Source of the DNA: Octopus vulgaris
Lineage: Eukaryota
DNA length: 64,000 bases
Direction of reading: 5' to 3'
NCBI GenBank assembly: GCA_951406725.2
Contig: OX597819.1
Span: 79,050,001 to 79,114,000 of the forward strand
A model generated the notes under the pieces. It was not told where the DNA came from and did not search any database. It saw only the letters and a program-made list of their open reading frames with translations. Within the stretch, counting starts at the first letter, position 1; each line of letters begins with the position of its first letter. Shown here in pieces: positions 4,860 through 59,529 of the stretch. Both the position numbers and the translations under genes were made by a program.

Positions 4860-6040
4860 ACAATTCTTTTGATAAATATTTCTCTTCTTGATGGCTGTAA
4901 CGACGACAATATACAAACAGTTAACCTTGATCTTCCTGTTTGCGTGACTTAGTTATATCGCAGGAAGATCGATCTCATGCCTCATTCTCATTTTTACTAC
5001 TTCCATAATTTGGTGAATTAGTGTCCAGTGTAATGTAAACTCCAAGTAAGTCAGTCATGCATATAGATGCATTCTTCTTTGGTTAAAACTAGGCTGAGAG
5101 AGACAATGCGGATAATAGTTTCTTCTCAATGTCCACATGCCCTATCGCCGTTATCTTTTGTATCCTCTTCATTAGATACGTTTTAGTAATTGCTAGTGAG
5201 AATATTTTGATGTTATATTGTTTGTTTTCAGTCTCAACTTTGAGTGAGGCGCAGTTGCAATTTTTTTCATGTGTCTGTAGAATATTTTCTTGCCATTAAT
5301 TTAGCATGGAATTCTGTAGTTTACATTTTAGGATTTTCACAATTTCTCTTGTTTCTCTTTTGTCATTTCAACCACTGTCACATATTATCTGGCTTCCTTG
5401 AAGAATTATAACAGTTTCTTTTTTTAATTGTTTTGTTCGTGTTTTGTAACTATTTGCATTTGTCTTCCATTATTCTTTACTAAATACTTTCATTGCGGCA
5501 CAATGGATATTTTATAATAGATTTCTAGTTGTATTAGCCCCGTGATTCTTGTATTCATGGCAAACATAATCTTTCTTTGTCAAATTTTGGGTGCTGTATA
5601 ACAAATGCAGTCCATTATTTTTCTTGTTCTACCGCCTAGTTTTGCTAATTCATGTAGCGTTTAGTTGAGAATATTATAACTATAATTTATTACTGGCACA
5701 GCTGGAGTATTGATGCCTATTATCTTATATTTTTATTAAGCTGTTTTAAGTATTGAACAAATTTTTCTATAACATTCTTTCTAACTTTTCTGTCATTTGT
5801 GAATGTTGTACACTGTGTAGTTAATTTATTCCTAAACATTTGTATATCTATATTTGATTTAATATTCCTATCTCTGTTTCTTTATCTAACATGACGTTAG
5901 TGTTCTTAATTAAATTTCTCTTCAAGCTTGCTTTGGCGCATTTTTCTAATTCGAATCTTATATGGATTGCAATAATAAATCCGTGCACTGTATGTAGCAA
6001 TGTTTCTGATTCCTCACCATCTGCAATATGCAAACTAAGG
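4860..6040 (-). pseudogene. Decayed non-LTR retrotransposon (R4/Dong-like RT-RLE), RT C-terminus onward
   Basis: ORF 5848-6033 ETLLHTVHGF..IRFELEKCAKASLKR..MLDKETEIGIL resembles the R4/Dong LLxTVxxFSxDIGMxFGLDKCAK motif, followed by a YKxLGI-like segment. Many stops. Confidence 0.7.
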
Positions 6041-6754
6041 GCTGCTTACATATATTAATTGTTCTCTCTAGTATTTACTCGAATCTAGCCTAGTTTAACT
6101 AAAGGTTGTTGTTATTGCTGCTGCCTCATAACCAAGGACTGACATGCTTGGTCTGGATTGAGCCAAAACAATCCAGTCGTGACTATCCTGTTTTATTTTC
6201 AGGCATAAAAGTTTTTGCATCATATCATTTAATGTTCAGTTTTAAGATAGTTGAGTCTAATTTGCTAGACGTCTAGCTACTATTTCTAGCAGGTAGAGAA
6301 GTTACATAGAAATACACTCCAGGTCAGAAAGGAATAGAAAAAAAATAATCTCCTTGCAATGTGCTTCTTTTTAATGGATATGGGATTACTCTTATAATTC
6401 GCTTTCATCTGTATCTGCATAAGAAACAACACAACTTTTCATCTTTTAATTTGAATGCTAGAATTCTTTGAAAGTCAACAAAAGACTGGTCAATGATACG
6501 TATGAAATCGTTTGGGAAGAGACGAAAGCAAATAGTATCAAACTACTTGAGTCACAGACAAACAGCCGGTTACTGATATAATAACCTTGTAAACTTTATG
6601 AGATTTTACATGTCAACCAACCACAGGACGTGGGCCCCTATATACCCACCTTGACACAAAAACCTTTCGCGGAAGATTAATAACTTTTTGGTATTGAATA
6701 CTTTATAGAGATATTGCAAAGCTTCCAGCGGAATGCCATTATCATGTTTCCAGA

Positions 6755-6976
6755 GGTGAATTATTCAAACCCCAAAGAATCCCTCTCAACACATAGCTAT
6801 GACTACTTCTACTTATGATCAGAGATGCACATATCGTCAGCCACTAAGGGACATGGTCAACTGGTTACGGTCAAACAACTGACAAGCAAATCTGTGGTAT
6901 TGAGCAGAATATTTGCTGTAGCCCATCTTTTATACCAAGACAAATTAATGTACATGATAACACTTCCAATCAGTTA
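6755..6976. repeat. Unclassified interspersed repeat; second copy inverted at ~34250-34420
   Basis: CAAACCCCAAAGAAT..GTCAGCCACTAAGGGACATG..AAGCAAATCTGTGGTATTGA matches the reverse complement of 34250-34420. Confidence 0.7.
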
Positions 6977-7012
6977 TTATTATTATTATTGTTGTTGTTG
7001 TTGTTGTTGTTA

Positions 7013-7207
7013 AAGAAGCGAGCTGGCAGAATCATTAACGACATTTCTTCTGTCGCAACGTTCTGAGTGGAAATTCCGCCGAGGTTGACTTTGCCTTTCA
7101 TCCTCTCGGGGTCGATAAATTAAGTACCAGTTGAATACTGGTGTAGATGTAATCGACTAGTCCCTCCCACCAAATTTCAGGTCTTGTGCCTTTAGTAGAA
7201 AAGATTA
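7013..7207 (+). mobile_element. SINE family B
   Basis: GCGAGCTGGCAGAATC..TTCCGCCGAGGTTGACTTTGCCTTTCATCC..GGGGTCGATAAATTAAGTACCAG. Confidence 0.85.
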
Positions 7208-8092
7208 TTACTATTATTGCTACTTGTCTCTTTTGTTGCGTTGTCCCTATGTATTTTGTGTCCAATTATTATTATTATTATTATTATTGTGTCCAATTAT
7301 TATTATTATTATTAATTAGATTTTTTTTTAAACGGACATGTCAGACACATCTCCACAAATTCAGATTTACCATGTAGCTGCTAACAAATTTTAAAAATTA
7401 TTTTAAATCTTTTCTTTACTCCTTTGCCAATATAAGCCTTTTGGAACATTTCAATATCCACTCTGATAACCTTCGGGTAGAAAAATATGATTTGTCCTTA
7501 GACATTTCAAATTTTGTAAATATTCGTTTACTTGCGTTTTAACAGAGTTTCTTCTTTTGGAGTGTAGCGGTAGCGGTGAGAGGTACATTGAAGGTTGCAT
7601 TGATCATGCCTGCTAGGAGGAAAGAAAATTATATAAACAATTACGTAATTTAAAAAAATCACAACTAAAACCAAATTATACAAAAAAACATGACATTTAA
7701 ACAAGTGAATACAAACATTTGTACTTTAAAAAAATACACAGAAAAGTGTCAATTCCACAACCGTATACATTTATAAAGACAAACTCTCACACTATAACAT
7801 ATATAAATAGCAACAAAACCATAAAAAAAGCAGTTTTCCAGTGTTATTCATGGGTCAGCTACATCAAAGAAATATAGATCTACACGGCAAGAAGAAAAGT
7901 GAAGAAATGACTGTGTTTCATTGTTTTTAGAATACGTTGAAGAAAGGTATGACACGTTTTGGCACAGCTGTCTTGGCGCCGCGTATTTGGTGTTGCTGAT
8001 TCGATACTGACTTATTTGACATCAGCAATTTTAAAGCTTTTTTTCATTTTAATGTTTCTTTTGTTTTCTTTCTTTCTTTCTTTCTTTTTTCT

Positions 8093-10380
8093 TTAGCTTT
8101 TTAAGGGACATTGTGAAGTAATCATGTCTTGTGACAAAGGAGTTTTGCCATTTTAGATATTTGAAAAATAAGAATGAGTCTAGAGAGTGGACAAAGGGAG
8201 GCAACAAGTGGCAAGTGGGGAAACTCACTCTTCAGTATAATTGTTGAAATAGGAATGTGTAAGGATCAAGTAGTCAAGTTTGTATATTAAGGTGTGGTTT
8301 GTGCTTTTGTATGAACAGGTTTTCCTTGATTAGGCATTCTTGTAAGGAGATTGAATCTTTGCACTGGTGTAATGGAAAAATATGGAAATTCGGTGTTTTA
8401 TTTCTTGCGCATCTGTCAATATGTTCGCTTGGGCTATCTGCCTGTATCGAGGAAAACGAATCTGTTCTTTATGCAGTGTAACTCTGCGTCTCAAAGTAAG
8501 GCTCGTTTGGCCCACATAATTGTGGCCACAACCTGAGCAGGTTAGGACATAGATAAGGTTCTGGGAAGCACATATGAAGTTGGTCTTGAAAATTTCCCCC
8601 TTGCTGGAATGTGAATTCCGAGCCTTCATTTAGGTATGGGCATGTACCACAACGGGGTCGTCTGCATTTTTTAACTGTCGGTATCGTATGTGTTGAGTAT
8701 AATTTGGCATTTGTTAGGAGTCTCTTAAGTGATTTGTGTTGTCTTTTGCATTTGAGGAGTTTATGTGTATTTAGAATGTTGTTCATTTTCGGGTCTTGAG
8801 TGAGCAGAGGGAGATTTTGTATAATTGTGTTGTATGTGTCATTGTTTCTGGGGTTGTGGGTTGATATGTATGGGAGTGATTTAGAGTGAGGTGTGGTGTT
8901 TTGTTTTGTTGTTCTTAGTGTGTCCAATTTCTTGGCACGTTTAATTCCATGGTCTATAAGTGCGGGTGGGTATTGACGTTCAATGCGTGTTATTTTGAGG
9001 TCTTGTAGGCGAAGTTCCCGAGTAGTTGTGTCAGATACAATTGTACAGATCCTTTTTGCTAGATTGAATGGGATATTTATTTTGCTGTGTTTAGGATGGC
9101 ATGAACTGAAAAGGAGATACTGTTTTGAGTTTGTTATTTTGTAGTAGGTGTCAGTTGCAATTTGGTTGTTGGATTTTTTATAATCAAAATGTCCAGAAAT
9201 GAGAGCTGTTCCTTGCTATATTCCATTGTAAATTGAATACTGGAGTTTATATTGTTCAGTGTAGATTTGAAATCCAGAAGTTTATCATAGGTTTCATTCC
9301 AGATGATAAAACAATCGTCTATGTATCTTTTCCAGTTTTCTCTTATATACTGGAGGAATGAGGGTCCAAATTTTTGGAACGACAGTTCATATAGGGTAAA
9401 TTCAAAGAAACCCATTATTAGGTTCGCAAGGACAGGCGCTGCTTTGGCTCCCATCGCAATACCGCATTTTTAGTCGTAGTATGTTTCATCCAGTAGGAAG
9501 TAATTGTTTTGTAGGATGAACTTCAGGGATTCTATGACAAAAGTTTGGTTCATGCGGTCCGGGAGGAATTCGGGGAATTTTTCTAACCAGAATTTTTATT
9601 GCCTCTATTCCGTAGTCATGTGGAATATTAGTTAGAAGTTGGTGACATCGAAGGAAAGTAATAGAGCTTCTTCGTTGTTGGTTTTTGGTAGATGCTGTAG
9701 CATGACCAGATCGTCTCTCATGAAACTTTTAATGTATCTGAGGAAAGGTTTCAATAGTATGTTCAGAAAGTTGCTTAGGCGTTGTGTTTCACAGGCTGGG
9801 TTCGCTATAATAGGCCTTAATTTTAAGTCTTCTGGTGTTGGGATATTTATGTATAGACCTGGATTTTATTTGCAGGCATTAGTAATTATTTAACTCTTGT
9901 GGATTTGGGGGAGGCCATAGAAAAAGCTTGGCTTGCATTTAAAGTTTGTGACATAGTCTTTTTCTTTTTCTTTTTCTGTGAGGTCTTTTCCATGTTTGAG
10001 TATTAAAGATGCAAGATCTTTTAATGTTTTTTGCTGCCTATAATTTGCAACTTTTTCATAAAAGGAGTCATTTTCTAGTATGGACAATGCTAGTTTTTTA
10101 TAGTATTGTGTGTCCATCAGGACTACAGCACTACCTTTGCTTCTTTGATTGTCAGGTCTTTGTCATTTTTTAGTTGTAGTAGGTGCTCCCATTGTACGTT
10201 GTTGAAGTTTGGTACAATTTTTGGTTTATAGAGAGTGTGAGGAAAATTCTGGATACGGTTGCAGAAGTCGTCTAGTGTTTTATAGATAATTATTTTTGGT
10301 TTTCACTAGTGATTTGTCATCGTTGTTGTAGTTGGTTAGTGCTTCTGTCAATGGAAGTTTTAAACAGAATTATCCAATAT
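8093..10380 (-). mobile_element. Penelope-like retroelement (Neptune-like): disrupted RT plus GIY-YIG endonuclease, with 3' pLTR remnant
   Basis: RT motifs FYGLPQIHK, LRPIIA, SFDVTN, MGAKAAPVLANL, WKRYIDDCF, FLDI. Thumb SSCHPKH..IPFNLAKRI. Zn linker KCRRPRCGTC. GIY-YIG CASQNLIYVLTCSGCGHNYVGQT..RVTLHK. Several frameshifts and stops. Confidence 0.92.
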
Positions 10381-10384
10381 TATC

Positions 10385-11790
10385 TTTAGACTCATTCTTA
10401 CTTTTCAAGTATCCAAAATGGTGAGAATCCTTTGTCACAAGAAATGATTACTTCACAATGTCTCTTGAAAAGCTAATTTAAATCGCGAAAACCGGTTGGA
10501 TATCACGACACTTATAAAATATGTATATATATAAATTTTTATTATGAAAAGATATTAAATTATGTGAAACGAAGGCATTTCTCTTCCACCTTTTATATAT
10601 GTTTTCCACGTATTTTCAACTCATAATTTTTCTGTGTTATATTCTGATTCTCCAGTATTTTTTCTCCTTTTATATTTCTATCATTTGCCTCACGTGGTAC
10701 TCAAAATGTCTGCGAAACCTACCTCCACCTCATCGGATAAAATTTCCAACGAGGACATCCTTAAAGAATTAAAAGAAATAAACACAAATTTAGTCACTCT
10801 AACCAACAAAATCGATGTACTATACCACCAAACCTGAGAAGTCTTAGAAAACGATCAAAGAAAGCAATCTACAGAGAAGATCATTCAAAATCTAAGTGAA
10901 CTATGCACTACATTAAATGAATTCTTTACCAGCATTTTCACAAACAATGCCGTAAAAGATACACTACAAAAATCACCCACCCCAAATGAAAACACACCAA
11001 TTGCAGCATGTTTTATTAAAAACCGTGTTAGTCACACTTGGTCCCAAAACCTCAACACCAGAAAACTCTCATCCTGGAACATGGTAAAAAATAACAATAA
11101 GCCACAAATATATGAAAAATGGATCAACTCTACACCGTTAATCTTGCCACGCAAATTCCAAATCAAACCCATCTCAGATGAACCAGAACAACAACCGGAG
11201 AAACTAGCACTAGCACTAGAAAAAAATGAGAACAAAAATTGAATTACTTAAGAATCATGCACAAAAATATAAAACGGTCGATGACGTGATGATCACAGAA
11301 CCCAAGATACATGCCAATGAACAACTTCTACAAAATGTTATTAAACTATGGAAAGACGGCTGTGAATCGGAAGAAATTAATTCACTACAAAAATGGGAAA
11401 ACAATATTAACTTTTTCCTCAACTACGAATCTCAATTCAAAGGAGACTACACCTCAGACAACCTCTTTAAAAAAAATCCAAAACAAATACATCCACAGAA
11501 ACCAATAATCGTACACCCAGATCAAACTATAAATACAGACACAAAACTACCCCACCAGTGGGAAATCAACTACCACCTACCTTACAATAGGAATCCCCCA
11601 TTAATAGGAAACACCCTAGGACTAGGAATAATAATAATGATTATTATTATTTCAATTCTTTCCCTCCAACAACTAGAGACAGGGGATCTTACCTGCTCCT
11701 CAACATAGGAATTCAACTTTCGGAACTTCAACTCTCTCACCCAGACAAAAAGAACAATTAGGAATAAGGATAAGTTAAAATTACTACCTG
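10385..11790 (+). mobile_element. Inverted pLTR plus decayed N-terminal ORF of the same PLE (head-to-head arm)
   Basis: 10385-10476 is the reverse complement of 8093-8184. It carries a hammerhead remnant (TTGAAAA 10465-71, GC..GC stem II, GAAA-ACCGGTT). A broken frame follows from ATG 10706 (MSAKPT..; WSQNLNTRK..IYEKW..LILPRKFQIKPI). Confidence 0.75.
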
Positions 11791-11942
11791 CTTTTATAGC
11801 AAGTTGATGCCACCACCGTTTGCGTCGACATCATCTCCGCCTTTCGTTCCTCTTCGACTTTTAGTTCATGCAATTGAAAAACCGCATTATTTATGGGATG
11901 ACCCAATGTATATATATATATATATTATTATTATTATTATTA

Positions 11943-11974
<32 letters not shown>

Positions 11975-12325
11975 GAGACCCCCTTCGGTCATGACTGACC
12001 GTGGGATTGCACCTAGAAAGTTACCCTCCGAGGCACAAGTCTGGGCAAGAATGTTTATGGAAGACCAGCAGTCGCCCATGCATACCAGCCTCCTGTCTCC
12101 ACGCCACCAGTGTTATCCAAGGGAAAGGCAAAGGCCGATACAGCTTGGCACCTGTGACATCGCAACTCATTTCTACAGCTGAATGAACTGGAGCAACATG
12201 AAATAAAGTGTCTTGCTCAAGAACACAACAAGTGTCTTGCTCAAGAACACGCAGCCCGGTCCGGGATTCGAGCTCACAATCTCACGATCGTAAGCGCTAC
12301 GCTCTAACCACTGAGCCATGCGCCT
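11975..12325 (-). mobile_element. tRNA-derived CORE-like SINE family C
   Basis: Head GGCGCATGGCTCAGTGGTTAGAGC..GCTCGAATCCCGG, core TTCTTGAGCAAGACAC (duplicated here), tail ..CATGACCGAAGGGGGTC. Related copies at 26832 and 48123. Confidence 0.88.
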
Positions 12326-12358
12326 CCACACACACACACACACACACATATATATACA

Positions 12359-12437
<79 letters not shown>

Positions 12438-12442
12438 TAGAT

Positions 12443-12800
12443 AGGCGCAGGAGTGGCTGTGTGGTAAGTAGCTTGCTAACCAGCCACACGGTTGCGGGTT
12501 CAGTCCCACTGCGTGGCATCTTGGGCAGGTGTCTTCTGCTATAGCCCCGGGCCGACCAATGCCTTGTGAGTGGATTTGGTAGACGGAAACTGAAAGAAGC
12601 CTGTCGTATATATGTATATATATGTATGTGTGTGTGTGTTTGTGTGTCTGTGTTTGTCCCCCTAGCATTGCTTGACAACCGATGCTGGTGTGTTTATGTC
12701 CCCGTTACTTAGCGGTTCGGCAAAAAGAGACCGATAGAATAAGTACTAAAGGTGGTGCTCCAGCATGGCCGCAGTCAAATGACTGAAACAAGTAAAAGAG
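12443..12800 (+). mobile_element. SINE family A, inserted at the Helitron 3' terminus
   Basis: Near-full match to 1121-1524. Preceded by CTAG at 12438 and followed by TAGCTGAAGG at 12801. Confidence 0.9.
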
Positions 12801-14175
12801 TAGCTGAAGGTGACCCGCTCTACGCGCGGGCAAGAGTGTGGTATATACATAAATGTATACAAATTATATATATATATATATATATATAAATACAGATATA
12901 TACACTTTGTATATATACATTATATATACATATTTATATATAGATACACACACACACACACACATATATATAAATTAATTTCATTTTGAGGTCTCTGCTA
13001 ATGTCATGTGTAAGTGGTCGTCATTGAGAAGTAGTCCGCGCCTCAAACATGCTTCCCTGTAAGTGGCGCAGATGATACCATCAACCGTGCGAAGATCAGC
13101 AAAAGACTTCGGTCCAGTAACTACATGAAGCAGCATTCTCAAAAAGAAGATTTCCTGTTTGGTAGGATGAATATTATACACACGCCCAATGACGTTCTTC
13201 CTAGAAACACCGGGCCAATTGTCAAGTTCTGTTCCATGTGACCTGCGCTTCCAATTATTGTTGTTGTATGTGTAATATTCCGGTACTTCAGGGTAAATGA
13301 GAGTAGCAGCAAACTCATCAGCTGAACACAATTTAAAAAACGCTGTAAGCGTAGTCCATTTTGGATTTTCAATGACTTGACGTGCATTTTTCTCTGAAGT
13401 AAACCAGCTGTCTCTTCTGTAAATGAACATTCAGGTGGAAAACTGATGGTGAGCTTAGATGAATCTCGTATCCAAAAATGCGTCACGCTGCATAATTGGA
13501 GGATACATACATACCGAAAACGAATTGTTTAATTTCGTCATGTCTAAGGTCTTCATCACTGAAAACAAACACGGCCATATCATCGCCCTTATTAATGTAC
13601 TTGCAGAGGTATTGTATGCATCTCACCGAACTGCAGTACTCAACATTAATGTGTGCATTAAATGTTTTGGAAAGCAAAGGGTTGAATGGAACAATCCAGG
13701 CATTATCAACATCGAATGTTATTAACCGTTGTCTAACTGTAGCTGTGCGGCCACCCAAACCTGTTTGGTGGTGGTGGTGGCGATAATTGTCTGTATGAAT
13801 GCAGACAGACGTGTAGAGAGAGAGAGAGTGAGAGAGAGAGAGAGAGAGAGTGTGTGTGAAAGCGCTGTAGAACGCCGGTTGACGAATCGACGTTATGTAT
13901 AGAAAGTGATGGGAAGGGAGGAAATAGAGTGAGTGAGTGAGGAAGACAGATACATAAAAGACTGAGTGTGGACTTGTCAAAGTGGGTTTTTGGCCCTAGC
14001 AACGACACCTTTTAAGATAGGGATTTCTAACGTAACCTACGGGCATCGTCACCTCACTTTACGTGTCCCTGTAAATTTTGGAGTCAATCCGACGGGGATG
14101 TAGTGGCGTTGAAAGCGGGTCAAGCGGTCGAGTCAAACAAACAAACTTTTCGCATTTCAGTTTTATAAATAGAGA
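12801..14175 (-). mobile_element. Internally deleted Helitron carrying Rep (HUH) domain fragments
   Basis: 5' TCTCTATTTATAAAA at 14175. Subterminal hairpin CCCGC..GCGGG at ~12814-12830, then the CTA(G) end. Rep fragments DNAWIVPFNPLLSKTFNAHINVEYC..IQYLCKYINKG and TTLTAFF..IGRVYNIHP..FFLRMLLHVVTGPKSFADLRTVDG..TYREAC..GLL. Confidence 0.93.
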
Positions 14176-14178
14176 TAA

Positions 14179-14244
<66 letters not shown>

Positions 14245-14249
<5 letters not shown>

Positions 14250-14412
14250 GGTTTAGTGGAGTGGTTAGGTTACTCGGCTCACGATCGTATAGCTGTGAGT
14301 TCGATTCTAGGTGACATGTTTTGTCCTTGAGCAAGACACTTTATTTCACATTGCTCCAGTCCACTCATCTGGCAAAAATGAGTTGTACTTGCAATTCACG
14401 CTCAATCTCCCT
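14245..14412 (+). mobile_element. CORE-like SINE family D, 5' part
   Basis: GCGCGTGGTTTAGTGG..GAGTTCGATTC..CCTTGAGCAAGACACTTTATTTCAC..AATGAGTTGTAC. Confidence 0.75.
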
Positions 14413-15242
14413 AAATTTCTTCTTCTTCGTCACAATCACCGCCACTGTCGTCACCATGACTGTCGTCGACGCCACCGTTTGCGTCGACATCATCTCCGCC
14501 TTTCGTCACCACCGCCTTCGTCACCGTCGTCGTATTCATCGTCACCGTTTTTGTTGTTGATGTCAAGGATGCATATTTCTGTTTTCTGAAGGTGTACGCC
14601 ACACATTGTTTATTCAACTACGCAATGTCGGTCGTTCGCCTCAGTCAAGCTTTGCCAATGACAATTTCATCATCATTATCATCATCATCATCATCATCAT
14701 CGTCGTCGTCGTCATCATCACCATCACTCGTTTTAAGTATTTATATAACTATATTTAACTGTATTACATGATAAGAGTAGCTGAAGAAGACGTTGCTGAC
14801 ACAATCCTTCCTCCAGGTGTGTTTGTAATTTTGTCATGTCCAGAAGCTCTTGAGTCTTAGAATTTCCATATTTGTTTCTTGTATTTTTTTCCCGTGAGCA
14901 CAGAATACGTCATGTGTTCATGGTGAAGTTAAAAGTCGTGTATCATGCATTTTGTATTTCTGTAGTCTCTATAGATGTAATCTTTTGCGGGGAAATGTTT
15001 CCGTAAAATATGTTTGATAAGACTGGTTTAAAGCTGTTTTCCAAATATGAATGTGTTACTAAAATATGTAGTTGTTTCAGCCTTGGGTCAGCCCTGATCA
15101 AAGAGGTTTGTTATGATCAAAGCCGTTGTAGCCTTGTTCGTTTCACCTTTTCTTTAAAGCATGGATAGTATTTTTTTTGTTTTTGTTTTTGATTTTTAAA
15201 AAATGGTGAAGACTTTTGGTATGACTATATGTTTAAGAAGCT

Positions 15243-15455
15243 CACGTGCGTTCAGTTCCACTGCACGGCAACCCGAACAGGTGTCTTCTATATAGTCCTA
15301 GGCTGACCAGTACTTTGTGAGTGAATTTGCCAGACGGAAACTGTGGAAGCCGGTCGCATATATACGTATGTGCGTGTAAGTGCTTGTGTTTTTTTGTTTG
15401 TGTTTGTGGCTCCTCCACTTGATAATCGCTGTTGGTTTGTTTACATCTCCGTAAA
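15243..15455 (-). mobile_element. Diverged SINE family A fragment (reads on + strand; label tentative)
   Basis: GTTCAGTTCCACTGCACGG..GTGAGTGAATTTG..AGACGGAAACTGTGGAAGC resembles family A in + orientation. The copy is decayed. Confidence 0.5.
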
Positions 15456-15461
15456 CTAGAT

Positions 15462-15548
<87 letters not shown>

Positions 15549-15944
15549 GCTGAAATTGATGGGTGAGCGTTTGGCCCAAATGGATGCACAAAGAGCCGTG
15601 TAAGCGTTGATTTGTGGGTTCGATTTCGGCCTGGGCTAGCTCATCATTTTTCAGTCAATTGTTTATATATAAATGTTACTTTAAATCGGAGTATATATAT
15701 TATTATTATGATATATGTATATATGTAGATGTGTATATGTATGTATGTGTATACACACACACACATATAAAAACACATATATGATGGTTATTTCCTTGTA
15801 AATTTGTTAACTATTAATTTTATTTTTTTCTGTTGTGTGTAATGTAGTTTATGGGTATTGTAAAGTTGTTACATGTGTAGTGAAATTAATTTTATAATTG
15901 CATGTCTAGATTTAAATACTCGGAAATCGGCTCCAGGTGTAAGT

Positions 15945-16370
15945 CTCTAATGATTGGTCATGCGACCAGTCATGTGACACTGAAATACTTTGTCCAGTCA
16001 AGCATTTGGATTGGTCTAGTTTACGCAGGATATGAAGTGCGTTGCAAAATAGACCACCAGACGCGGCAAGTTAAAAATGTTAGCCTGAGCCTCAATTTGT
16101 CAATAAATAGCCTGAAATTTTTCGTTTTCACCAGTGAGGTGAGAAAGAGAGAGCATGGAGAAGGGAGAATATGTTTTCAAGAAGCCACGTCACATAATTT
16201 TTGTTCCTGTTGAAGCACGTGTAATCAAGTTTGACTGAGTTGAAAAGCCACCTGTGAAAAGCTACTTGTGAAAAACCGCTTATTTTCTACAGTTCTACAG
16301 TTCATAGCCATCTATGAAAAGCCACCTATTTTCTACAGTTCACATTTTCTTCGCCATGTATTCATCAGGT
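15945..16370 (+). promoter_or_regulatory. Candidate promoter-like unique island
   Basis: ATTGG boxes at 15953 and 16010, GTCATGTGAC at 15969, CCACGTCA at 16185, CACGTG at 16216, GCCATG at 16353, and CAG|GT at 16369. Motif evidence only. Confidence 0.25.
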
Positions 16371-17729
16371 TCGTTGTATAATTTTATTTAGCTGAAGATT
16401 AGTGACGCTCTTTAATAGAAATCGTGTTTTTGCATCATTTCCATCATTTTATATGCAATTCATGAGAAGTAAGAATTTGTATTAAAAAGCCCAGAGACAC
16501 GACCTTCCAGCTAAACATAATTTTTATCAAATTGGTTATTTCATTTGTGTAATTTGGGTATTGCTTTTATGTTTTTTTTTGTGAGTTACACTTTTTTAAG
16601 AAACTGAAATGATTTCTATGTAATATAATTGCGACATTACATGTTATTTAGTTTATATTTTCAAATTTTTGACGTAACCCTTTACAGGGCTGTCGAAACT
16701 GGTGGGAGTAAAAGAAGTAGGGAGGAAGAAAATATCCTCAAACCGAAGATGTGCCTCGAATTCTTGCAACTATGTGGACTAGCCTCCACTAAAACCATCC
16801 CAGGTGCTTGTTGGTGGTGTTAAACCAAGGGACGGATTAAGTCTAACCCCAACCCACCCTCGAGCAGGCCATTGTGAGATTTTAACTCAGAATGCAAGGA
16901 TCTAGAAGAAGCGATGTGATGGCATCAAGCATGGCGTTCTTACAGTTCTACCAAACCATCATCATGGATTGGTACTTTATTTATCGATCAAGGAAGGATG
17001 AAAGGCAAGGTTGACTTTCATCGGCGGGATTTGAACTCAGAGTGGAGAAAGTTGGAACAAATGCTGAAAGTGAGTATTGTAACTGTCGCTGAAATGACTC
17101 TTGTCAGTTGACTGCTTTTATAGGATATATCATCATCGTCGTCGTCGTCACGATGAAGAGGAAAATTTTCTTTTAGAAAAGCAAGACTGAAAATTTGATA
17201 TTTCTTGAGATTTGTAAAAAATCAAAAAAAAAAAAAAGAAAAAAAAAAGTTGTTGCTGTGCAACTTTTATGTTGTACCACTATCCTTGTATTTATCATCA
17301 TACTCTGGTGTAGATTATATCGACTTCGGCTCTATACCTCCTTAACAAAACTAAACAAAATGAAAAAGACATCTGTGGACTTGCATTAATATGAGACATT
17401 ACTATTATTTCCACCTCCTCATCTGCTTCATTTTACAACATGTCGCCTTGTCATCGTCGTATACTGCGACTCTCTCTCTCCTTCTCCCGGCCATTATCAT
17501 TATTATGGGTTGTGTAGTACGGAGTCAACCTGTGAGCTATATATGTGCTTGCATGAGAACTGTACAATTAACTGAACCCTGACTACAGTCTCACTCAGGT
17601 AAGTATTTGAGTAGATACTAACGTGACCTGTTTTCACTATTACACACAATAGATCATACAGAATACCAGGAACCAAAATAAAAATCACCGCTTACTCTAA
17701 CATGAGCAAAATCAGATATTCAGTAGCAG

Positions 17730-28620: not shown

Positions 28621-28716
28621 TTTCACGCACGCATACGCATACATGTATATATATGTATGTATATATATATGTATATAATATATATATATATATACATGTA
28701 TATATATATGTATATA

Positions 28717-28782
<66 letters not shown>

Positions 28783-28785
<3 letters not shown>

Positions 28786-28968
28786 GGAGAATTCATGAAA
28801 AAATAATAGACGAATACAGGTGATGTAGAAAGCAAACAGATGTATTAGTATAACGCTCGGGAAATGAAAAAGTTTTTAACGTTTCGAGCCTACGCTCTTC
28901 CACAGAAAGGGACACAGAAAGAAACAAGGAGAGAAAAAAATGTGTGTAGTGGCTATCGATCTATCATA
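28783..28968 (-). repeat. Short PLE-LTR-like repeat in (TA)n; further copies at 50900-51090 (+) and upstream parts at 58330-58447 and 61743-61850
   Basis: Shared GAGCGTAGGCTCGAAACGTT..CCCGAGCGTTATACTAATAC and ATGATAGATC..AGCCACTAC segments. Confidence 0.7.
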
Positions 28969-29189
28969 TATATTATACATATATATATATATCTATACTA
29001 AGTAATTAAGGGTTTAGCAACGAATTGCCTCACCAACACACCGAATTTAGAAATAGCAGTCAAAGAGATATAGCTATTCCTTCTACTAAAAGAGGGATCT
29101 CAGTAAAAACACAGCACTTGAAAGGCAAACACAGACAGGTAAGAAAGAAAGAATGAAATGACGGCAATCTATCATGCAATTTTAAGTTA

Positions 29190-29281
29190 CCTACGGACGT
29201 ACGTTTCGAGATCAAGTTTTAGGATAGCATAAGAATTAGAAAATTCTACTTTACCCAAACTTCTTCTCTCATCGGCGCAGG
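29190..29281 (-). ncRNA. Type I hammerhead ribozyme (inverted twin of 29639-29730)
   Basis: Reverse complement of 29639-29730, with no difference seen by eye. Confidence 0.72.
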
Positions 29282-29638
29282 ATACGACAATTATGAATAA
29301 TTGTATATTAAATTTTGAGATACTAGAATGCATCATCTCAACTCAGTGTCAGAGCGAGCCAAAGCATGACCAGTACCACGAAATTCAAAGTTTGAATGAA
29401 AGTTTGTGTCACCAGCCCCCTTCCACCCGCGTGTAGCCAAGACAAAATGCTGCGGTCATTCACTGGGATAAAATATGGTTATCAGTAATAATAATAAAGG
29501 GTGAAATTAATTAATTAGGGATAATTATCAATTACACCAAGTAGATTTCGGCATGTAAAAGCCCCATTCGAGGAAAATTTAAGTAATACTAAGTAATTAT
29601 CTCAAAATTTAATATACAATTATTCATAATTGTCGTAT

Positions 29639-29730
29639 CCTGCGCCGATGAGAGAAGAAGTTTGGGTAAAGTAGAATTTTCTAATTCTTATGCTATCCTA
29701 AAACTTGATCTCGAAACGTACGTCCGTAGG
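29639..29730 (+). ncRNA. Type I hammerhead ribozyme: CCGATGA core, long stem II, palindromic stem III
   Basis: Stem I CCTGCG/CGTAGG. Core CCGATGA 29645-51. Stem II GAGA..AAGTTT..AAACTT..TCTC. GAAA 29713-16. Stem III ACGTACGT. GUC cleavage after 29724. Confidence 0.72.
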
Positions 29731-30039
29731 TAACTTAAAATTGCATGATAGATTGCCGTCATTTCATTCTTTCTTTCTTACCTGTCTGTGTTTGCCTTTC
29801 AAGTGCTGTGTTTTTACTGAGATCCCTCTTTTAGTAGAAGGAATAGCTATATCTCTTTGACTGCTATTTCTAAATTCGGTGTGTTGGTGAGGCAATTCGT
29901 TGCTAAACCCTTAATTACTTAGTATTACTTAAATTTTCCTCGAATGGGGCTTTTACATGCCGAAATCTACTTGGTGTAATTGATAATTATCCCTAATTAA
30001 TTAATTTCACCCTTTATTATTATTATATATATCTATATA

Positions 30040-30104
<65 letters not shown>

Positions 30105-42872: not shown

Positions 42873-43770
42873 CAGTTCTGCCTCCGTCCCCGACGCTTTA
42901 ACGATTCTGCTAATCCACCAACCTGGTAATGAAATTATTATTTTCTACTCTAGGCTCAAGGCGCCAAATTTTTGGAGAGGAAGCCAGTCGATTAGATCGA
43001 CCCTAGTACGCAACTGGCACTTAATTTATCAACCCCGAAAGGATGAAAGGCAAAGTCGACCTCGGCGGAATTTGAACTCAGACGAAATAGGCTAAGCATT
43101 TTGCCCGGCGTGCTAACGTTTCTGCCAGCTCACTGCTTTGAAAACGGAATATTCTTTTCTACTGTAGACACAAGGCCTGACATTTTGGGGGAGTGGGCAA
43201 TCAATTAGATCGATTCCAGTACGCAACTAATACTTAATTTATCGACCCCAAAAGGATGAAAGGCAAAGTCGACCTCGACGGAATTCGAACTCAGAATGTA
43301 AAGATAAGCGAAATACCGCTAAGCATTTCACCTGGCGTGCTAACGTTTCTTATTTTTTATTGCCCACAAACGGCTAAGCATAGATGGAGACAAACAAGGA
43401 CAGACAAAGGGATTATTAAGTCGATTACATCGACCCCAGTGCATAACTGGTACTTAATTTATCGACCCCGAAAGGATGAAAGGCAAAGTCGACCTCGGCA
43501 GAATTTGAACTCAGAACGTAACGGCAGACGAAATACCTATTTCTTTATTACCCACAAGGGGATAAACACAGAGGGGACAAACAAGGACAGACATAGGTAT
43601 TAAGTCGATTACATCGACCCAAGTGCGTAACTGGTACTTAATTAATCGACCCCGAAAGGATGAAAGGAAAAGTCGACCACGGCGGAATTTGAACTCAGAA
43701 CGTAACGGCAGACGAAATACCGCTAAGTATTTCGCCCGGCGTGCTAACGTTTCTGCCAGCTCGCCGCCTT
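42790..43770 (-). mobile_element. Tandem array of about 5 SINE B monomers, including a dimer
   Basis: Repeated ATCGACCCCGAAAGGATGAAAGGCAAAGTCGACC. Dimer junction ACGAAATACCTATTTC at ~43528. Confidence 0.88.
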
Positions 43771-51831: not shown

Positions 51832-52380
51832 CGACGGGCTTCTTTCAGTTCCCGTCTACCAAATCCACTCACAAGGCTTTGGTCGGCCTGAGACTATAGT
51901 AGAAGACACTTAACCAAGGTGATACGCAGTGGGACTGAACCTGAAACCATGTGGTTGTTAAGCAAGCCACTTACTCTTGCGCCTACTAAATCCACTCACA
52001 AGGCTTTGGTCGGCCCGAAGCTATTGGGGAAGACACTTGCCCAAGGTGCCACACAGTGGGACTGAACCCGGAACCGTGTGGTTGGGAAGCAGGCTTTTTA
52101 CCACACAGCCACGCCTGCGCCATTTTCCCACATAAATTTCTATGGAAATACAATAGTTTGTTACTGAATTCTCAACAAGACTGTGTGGTTAAGAATAGGC
52201 TCAGGTAATTATGGTTGTGTGGTTAAGAAGCTAACTTTGCAACCTATTGGTTTCAGTTTCGAGTCCACGCTCGGTTCCACTTTGTACTTCCTTGGGCAAG
52301 TATCTTCTACTAAAGCCGACCGTCCAATGCCTTGCGATTATATTTGGTAGACGGATGCTGTGTGGAAGCCCGTCGTATGT
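51570..52380. mobile_element. SINE A (-, 51570-51985), extra head (-, 51985-52122), diverged head (+, 52180-52380)
   Basis: AAATCCACTCACAAGGCTTTGGTCGGCC occurs twice. Confidence 0.8.
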
Positions 52381-58819: not shown

Positions 58820-59187
58820 AATCTTTTCTATTATAAGCACAAGGCCTGAAAGCATGAAACGCAAATTCGACCTCGGCGGTATCTGAACTCAGAGCGTAAA
58901 GACGGACTAAATGCCGCTAAGCATTCTGCCCGCTGTGCTAACGATTCTGCCACTTCACCGCCTTTACTACTACTACTACTACTATAGGCACAAGGCCTGA
59001 AATTTCGGGGGAGGAGAATAGTCGAGTACATCGACCCTTGTGATTCACTAGTACTTTATTTATCAACCCCGAAAGGATGAACGAAAAAGTCAGCCACGGC
59101 GGAATTTGAACCCAGAACGTAAGGCCGGACGAAATGCCGCTCAGTATTTTGCCCTGCGTGCTAACGATTCTGCCATTTCACCGCCTT

Positions 59188-59255
<68 letters not shown>

Positions 59256-59460
59256 TAGGCACAAGGCCTGAAATTTTGGGGGAGGAGAATAGTCGAGTAC
59301 ATCGACCCTTGTGATTCACTAGTACTTTATTTATCAACCCCGAAAGGATGAACGAAAAAGTCAGCCACGGCGGAATTTGAACCCAGAACGTAAGGACGGA
59401 CGAAATTGCCGCTCAGTATTTTGCCCTGCGTGCTTACGATTCTGCCAGGGCACCGCCTTA
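58820..59460 (-). mobile_element. SINE B copies with a local tandem duplication bounded by (TAC)n
   Basis: 58985-59187 and 59256-59460 share private variants (GAGTACATCGACCCTTGTGATTCACTAG, GAACGAAAAAGTCAGCCACGG). Confidence 0.85.
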
Positions 59461-59495
59461 CAGCCACCACTACCACCACAACAACAACAACATCA

Positions 59496-59529
<34 letters not shown>

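Follow-up and report, generated by a model that had tools for sequence, protein, structure and literature searches.

Does the inverted, hammerhead-bearing repeat at 28995..30025 of the window (the whole 64,000-nt stretch of Octopus vulgaris DNA analysed here) belong to a retrozyme-like family, and how did its two opposed arms come to lie in (TA)n? The locus is a single insertion of a young, non-coding hammerhead repeat family. Its unit is 591 nt long, with unit position 1 at 29599 and read on the minus strand. The parts of the insertion are as follows.

28995..29599, minus strand: arm 1, unit 1-591 followed by 1-14 (605 nt, exact match), with its outer 3' end in start zone A (unit 14)
29598..30025, plus strand: arm 2, unit 278-591 followed by 1-114 (exact 428-nt match to the doubled unit), with its outer 3' end in start zone B (unit 114)
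29598..29599, no strand: head-to-head junction at the 5' ends of both arms, with a 2-nt TA overlap (exact comparison)
29639..29730, plus strand: putative type I hammerhead (core motif, folding, covariation), predicted cut after C29724
29190..29281, minus strand: putative type I hammerhead (core motif), predicted cut after C29196
29833..30025, plus strand: ~190-nt module of arm 2, spanning start zones A (29925) and B (30025) and shared with three sister families
28995..29087, minus strand: ~190-nt module of arm 1, ending at zone A (sequence match)
28960..28994, no strand: left target remnant, short imperfect (TA)n (sequence)
30026..30095, no strand: right target remnant, (TA)n then (ATAC)n (sequence)

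Both arms point outward into (TA)n, and the 328-nt segment common to them is 100% complementary. A frame scan inside the element found no stop-to-stop frame longer than 67 codons, and the GC content of the unit is 36.7%, below the 45% retrozyme limit. The sequence-only reading of this DNA had described a minus arm that opens and closes with the same 14 nt, a circular unit order, identical arms joined by a TA overlap with both outer ends in (TA)n, and one hammerhead per unit without an ORF. All of this holds, arm 2 running exactly through 591>1>114 of the doubled unit. What does not hold is the special standing given to a complete monomer with a 14-nt terminal repeat: arms elsewhere may be as short as a few dozen bases or as long as 10.4 units, and the 1.02-unit arm is therefore one draw among many.

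The surroundings hold other repeats. The left flank (window 28771-28959, minus strand) is 74% like the 3' end of a young Penelope-like family with ORFs of ~1,070 aa, and this remnant carries its own (TA)n at 28646-28782. Retrozymes often insert into TA tracts left behind by older insertions, as also at loci L090, L184 and L408. Window 8472-9215 (minus strand) is a 248-codon piece of an older Penelope-like RT, ~70% identical to an intact 753/782-aa family, and tandem pairs of 184, 127 and 271 nt with a SINE-type look lie at 43351-43721, 51856-52091 and 58965-59526.

The ribozyme and the repeat family

In the plus copy, a 6-bp stem I (29639-29644 with 29725-29730) is combined with the core CCGAUGA from 29645 (U4C), a stem II arm of ~60 nt (29652-29712), GAAA from 29713 and C17 at 29724. 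In the minus copy C17 lies at 29196, and the predicted cut site corresponds to unit 404. Rfam gave no hammerhead match at gathering score or at E<=10 in the window, the element or one sister-family locus, and the predicted type I assignment rests on core motif, folding and covariation. Across 14 aligned variants 92.3% of stem cells are paired, against 23-45% in slid controls, and changes on both sides are found in 4 of the 30 hammerhead pairs (one stem I pair and the base of stem II); since related sequences can beat shuffles without structure, this covariation is support and not proof. The ribozyme structure is retained by compensatory change across subfamilies up to ~20% apart. It is not a chance motif, because a 22-nt piece of it has 248 exact matches genome-wide and the reversed control has 0. 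Its 3' half has 1,863 matches genome-wide (control 7), spaced one unit apart.

The ribozyme had been called atypical for its U4C core, its ~60-nt stem II and its palindromic stem III. The long stem II is borne out, being kept in 14/14 aligned variants. Stem III is indeed palindromic, and this is the usual form: a palindromic stem III shared between two copies is described for most metazoan type I hammerheads (PMC4209133). Folded as a lone RNA, the ribozyme is predicted to form no stem III; two copies would share an 8-bp stem III from the palindrome, and folding favours the dimer (-60.6 vs 2 x -26.9 kcal/mol). U4C is, as far as the sequences tell, a recent and derived state: the canonical U4 core is found at 1,122 places genome-wide vs 400 for U4C, and it is the youngest copies and the youngest subfamily that carry U4C. 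This change is reported to weaken activity in vitro yet to sustain a viroid in vivo (PMC3088659). The hammerhead of the autonomous Penelope-like L181 family (L181:5806-5850) likewise combines a C in position 4 of the core with a stem III that is palindromic. As a closed monomer, the unit is predicted to fold at -154.8 kcal/mol vs -123.0 +/- 5.5 for 30 shuffles (z -5.7), with stem I bridging the ligation point; compensatory change in 6 of the 177 predicted pairs (12 full units) is a modest signal.

The family is dispersed on many contigs of the 2.8-Gb host genome that was searched. Its subfamilies have units of 583-601 nt with ~76-100% identity to the window unit, and the units adjoin directly, without an ORF in between. 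We mapped 111 loci, of which 54 stand behind the first 100 listed 22-nt matches (contigs 1-6), 37 come from contig 1 and 20 are hand-picked top matches; 108 of the 111 were classed, three of the contig-1 loci being below the filter. Among 176 pieces, 85 exceed one unit and 27 exceed two, and the longest reaches 6,177 nt (10.4 units). Genome searches of the kind proposed earlier for the 591-mer yielded tandem and variably ended copies, without a linked RT in the loci scanned, as expected of a retrozyme. With ~590-nt units, one predicted type I hammerhead in each, 1,863 ribozyme matches and multimers, the earlier idea of a retrozyme-like family is upheld, and by the sequence-level definition this family is in all probability a non-LTR retrozyme.

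Retrozymes are a known kind of element, of which this family is a new member, and its value lies in the insertion anatomy. Our literature search found no description of such a hammerhead family for octopus or cephalopods, and the phage records held no match to the unit. Part of the unit is contained in 20 of 24 rows of sequencing runs, none of them recorded as RNA. In four runs that we guessed to be RNA (four studies), contigs cover 21-30 of 30 unit bins and all bridge the end-to-start join; tandem DNA also holds this join, so these contigs say nothing on expression or circles.

The likeness to animal non-LTR retrozymes extends to non-coding, low-GC tandem units with one predicted type I hammerhead each, to a range from monomers to multimers, to a strongly folded predicted circle and to co-occurrence with Penelope-like elements. 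The monomer, which had been thought long, lies above the 170-400 nt given for animal non-LTR retrozyme units by Cervera and de la Pena (2020; PMC7229834), but inside the 51-972 bp given for retrozyme units by Li, Clavereau and Pollet (2026; bioRxiv 10.64898/2026.07.22.740005). Unlike what the accessible parts of these two papers describe, the octopus family has defined insertion ends, head-to-head pairs and (TA)n targeting. It also differs from animal non-LTR retrozymes in its ~60-nt stem II, and no pLTR homologue of it was found among the five families compared. Where Li et al. (2026) suggest local pLTR expansion, the Octopus vulgaris arrays mostly look clonal at birth.

Insertion ends, shared module and template

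Outer 3' ends cluster not at the cut site (404) but in two zones ~100 nt apart, zone A (mostly unit 14 and 20-23) and zone B (106-127). The 108 classed loci comprise 58 head-to-head and 50 one-way insertions. One end in each zone (A+B) was found in 42 of the 58 head-to-head pairs, next to one A+A pair (L021), one B+B pair (L107) and 14 pairs with an end elsewhere; the A+B excess has a binomial p of 6e-11 vs 50%, on zone limits set after the data were seen and on a sample in which 20 of the 111 loci were chosen from top matches. One-way insertions end in A in 40 cases and in B in 10. The target is microsatellite DNA, 160 of 166 outer ends running into TA, GATA or TACA repeats. Junctions differ in position among loci and show overlap or flush ends in 47/58. 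By analogy, the A+B pairing is likely to be the "tail at one end" signature of Penelope, in which both cut target strands prime reverse transcription. We found no account of paired start zones in retrozymes in the literature searched, which included few subscription papers and no Repbase.

Ends coincide with TA-like words of the RNA. At L081 a GATA end lies on a GATA repeat, and at L086 a TAC end lies on an ATAC repeat; short pairing of the RNA with the primer is only suggested by these two loci, and alignment overshoot can mimic it. L124:3255-3643 is a near-palindromic insertion whose arms both stop at unit 403/404, where cleavage is predicted, as though reverse transcription had been primed directly on the ends of cut RNA.

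Other elements share a ~190-nt module (unit 513>127) with this family, at 69-90% likeness. Three sister hammerhead-repeat families have only this module in common with the present one: one consists of tandem units of 561-562 nt with a different hammerhead (L300, L304, L318), and the two others (L260, L209, L217; L329-L354) each have a hammerhead of their own. As the module spans both start zones, it is likely to be the recognition signal for the reverse transcriptase. Seven natural module copies align with a common hairpin set, supported mostly by one-sided changes. By eye, 8 of 10 two-armed loci of a sister family show the one-of-each end pattern, in a set whose query was biased to B ends. 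Three tandem bare modules, each with a (TA)n tail and with a period of ~198 nt, stand at L327:1300-1885. A ribozyme-free 198-nt family was considered for this locus and rejected, because other members have a hammerhead 3' half upstream.

What RNA served as template? Cut linear monomers are rejected, because 140 of 176 pieces cross the cleavage site (159 of 165 cycles being unchanged across it), the expected 5'-end pile-up there is absent (7 ends vs 4.8 expected) and 85 pieces are longer than one unit. Across 74 loci, a variant known from at least three of them is carried by every copy of the locus in 176 of 187 cases. Of the private variants, 26 occur in each copy of the locus concerned (7/7, 6/6, 5/5), several of them in both arms; another 11 are shared by some units of an array only, and 108 occur a single time. 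Copies diverge by 0.34% inside an arm, by 0.43% from one arm to the other and by 1.64% from locus to locus. The variants fixed locus-wide imply that each insertion is one haplotype and that new variants passed through a one-unit bottleneck. Within an insertion, units and arms are clonal and continue across the cut site, and on balance a circular template is favoured; a monomer circle would give the one-unit bottleneck in one step. Two arrays need an oligomeric template or later duplication, since a single monomer circle does not give them: at L084:3067-6756 unit variants repeat with period 3, and L061:1694-7842 is a two-state mosaic of unit variants. The paired zones, the (TA)n ends and the clonal arrays lend support to the Penelope-type insertion and the circular or tandem template that the sequence-only reading had proposed.

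Penelope-like elements and the proposed mechanism

Helpers were sought with a GIY-YIG family search and three protein searches, in each of which the best 146-150 of 6,000-17,000 candidates were scored. Five Penelope-like families were found: an intact 781-aa, a 753/782-aa and a ~1,070-aa family, the L181 family and an older short family. Three of them (L165-L180, L367-L386, L387-L410) have many intact or near-identical ORFs (781, 753/782 and ~1,070 aa); the 781-aa and 753/782-aa families carry an upstream ORF, and at least 64 listed copies of the ~1,070-aa family are identical over 262 aa. The intact families may be Neptune-like. Pfam recognized RT and GIY-YIG domains in the autonomous ORFs, some below the cut-off. 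Candidate helpers are the three families that are young, target TA and have long intact ORFs. Neither a BLAST search with the unit nor a module profile matched the ends of the five families (two 3' ends, one 5' end and 20 internal stretches in the case of the ~1,070-aa family), and only separate retrozyme insertions turned up in those loci. One short and one tailed end were found in 2/2 pairs of one autonomous RT and GIY-YIG family (~37-nt tail) and in 5/5 script-classable pairs, from 20 loci, of a second (~48-nt tail). L374, also autonomous, is a possible exception, perhaps with a short end on either side.

ORF scans of L001-L134 and 37 older loci found no RT and GIY-YIG ORF joined to the unit. 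Penelope-like ORFs lie near L055/L090, L098 and L408 and also near L255 and L268, and the three inspected are all separate insertions of unrelated families, cut off by (TA)n. The GIY-YIG ORF at L055/L090 was discarded as a partner, as its own hammerhead and (TA)n end it before the unit starts. At L098:2225-5193 a retrozyme insertion interrupts a broken Penelope-like element whose endonuclease lies upstream of its RT, presumably the domain order of Naiad-like elements.

In its anatomy the family resembles EN+ Penelope-like elements (Craig et al. 2021, PMC8557442; Arkhipova et al. 2013, PMC3846280; Frangieh et al. 2024, PMC11167929): both insert at microsatellites, leave partial tandems together with an inverted copy truncated at its 5' side, bear a tail on only one end, have two RT start sites within the RNA and carry a hammerhead close to their ends. 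Unlike them, it has no ORF, its tail measures ~100 nt where theirs measure 30-40, a single short unit is run through many times in full, and its ends lie on TA-like words of the RNA. It also resembles the non-autonomous MRC1-type elements of Chlamys (PMC8557442), which are non-coding Penelope-like passengers with multi-copy head-to-tail insertions. These resemble their helper at the 3' end and are mostly without a hammerhead (PMC8557442), whereas each Octopus vulgaris unit has a predicted hammerhead and no helper match was seen among the five families. Judged by insertion anatomy, the family would work like a Penelope passenger, with no sequence kinship seen to the ends of the five families compared.

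The best overall explanation, which we hold with moderate confidence, is a circular-template, two-start insertion of Penelope type by a retrozyme family; that there were two target-primed starts by a Penelope-like enzyme is highly likely. Transcripts of tandem copies would self-cleave, best as dimers, and be ligated into ~590-nt circles. The ~190-nt module would recruit a dimeric RT-GIY-YIG protein, which would cut both strands of a (TA)n tract and prime reverse transcription twice, once per start zone, the zones lying ~100 nt apart, probably on circular monomer RNA. Each cDNA would continue for a variable distance round the circle, and the two cDNA ends would be joined by 0-7 nt of microhomology or short filler; a one-way insertion would result when one arm is very short or lost. 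There is a precedent in Poseidon of the anole, where the purified protein is reported to cut and extend both strands from two internal RNA start sites that bound the tail, with a predicted dimer and with starts not homologous to the target (PMC11167929). A weak point is the ~100-nt spacing of the zones, greater than the 30-40 nt of Penelope tails and than the ~37 and ~48 nt in this genome.

One possibility is that the same two-start insertion used an uncleaved linear multimer from a tandem array, the ribozyme being idle in mobility and the arrays growing by DNA duplication. Arms would cross the cut site here as well, the main substrate of the anole protein is described as uncleaved RNA (PMC11167929), the youngest subfamily carries U4C, and the period-3 array and the mosaic suggest either that templates were mixed or that units were duplicated after insertion. 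However, copying alone only shortens arrays, yet arms reach 10.4 units, and new variants fixed in all units and both arms need a one-unit bottleneck before copying, although a uniform, unsampled source array may also supply fixed private variants by way of an uncleaved multimer. The ribozyme structure is also kept by compensatory change, and sister families each keep their own ribozyme; we consider the multimer rather unlikely. Much less probable is a single priming event followed by fold-back or self-priming, close to the earlier proposal of copying once around and then switching strands, which fails at this locus. The two arms do not nest, and neither is a fold-back copy of the other, because arm 2 has the join 591>1>114 that is absent from arm 1, and arm 1 is longer; both outer ends lie at the start zones used family-wide. 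Among the other pairs too either arm may be longer (the A arm in 22 of 42 A+B pairs), and 5' ends are offset in 51 of 58. They lie within 15 nt in the other 7, slightly above chance (p 0.03), and L124 is a near-perfect palindrome; the self-priming that Arkhipova et al. 2013 (PMC3846280) proposed for Penelope palindromes may account for a few such cases.

It is very improbable that the copies are solo pseudo-LTRs of one autonomous Penelope-like element, with no independent replicator. Retrozymes and pLTRs are reported as related in Xenopus (bioRxiv 10.64898/2026.07.22.740005), and the Penelope-like ORFs near L055/L090, L098 and L408 would suit this reading, but consecutive units have no ORF between them, the three neighbours inspected are of unrelated families, and four families with different ribozymes have only the module in common. 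An assembly or read artefact, for which clustered deletions near the junction in two arms elsewhere (L121, L103) might speak, is scarcely credible when 58 of the 108 classed loci show an inversion, with a separate junction in every case, and follow the A+B rule.

Insertion from two starts on a circular template bears on two questions. The movement of animal retrozymes has so far been assumed and not demonstrated, and the origin of Penelope head-to-head repeats with a tail at one end is a standing question in PMC8557442, PMC3846280 and PMC11167929. Tentatively, and with somewhat more doubt than conviction, we envisage at least four viroid-like RNA circles of ~560-600 nt, each with its own ribozyme and all with the ~190-nt structured module, that would exploit a dimeric Penelope-like RT to which they bear no resemblance in sequence, two RTs starting 100 nt apart on the same circle and rolling round it from both ends of the cut (TA)n. 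If true, the reverse transcription of retrozyme circles would for the first time be visible as a footprint at genome scale, and paired priming, not self-priming, would explain Penelope head-to-head repeats and one-sided tails. Octopus vulgaris offers in one genome a young family of ~1,900 units with readable ends, its module, its two start zones, its target and intact candidate enzymes, and both mechanistic questions thereby become directly testable in vitro and in germ-line RNA.
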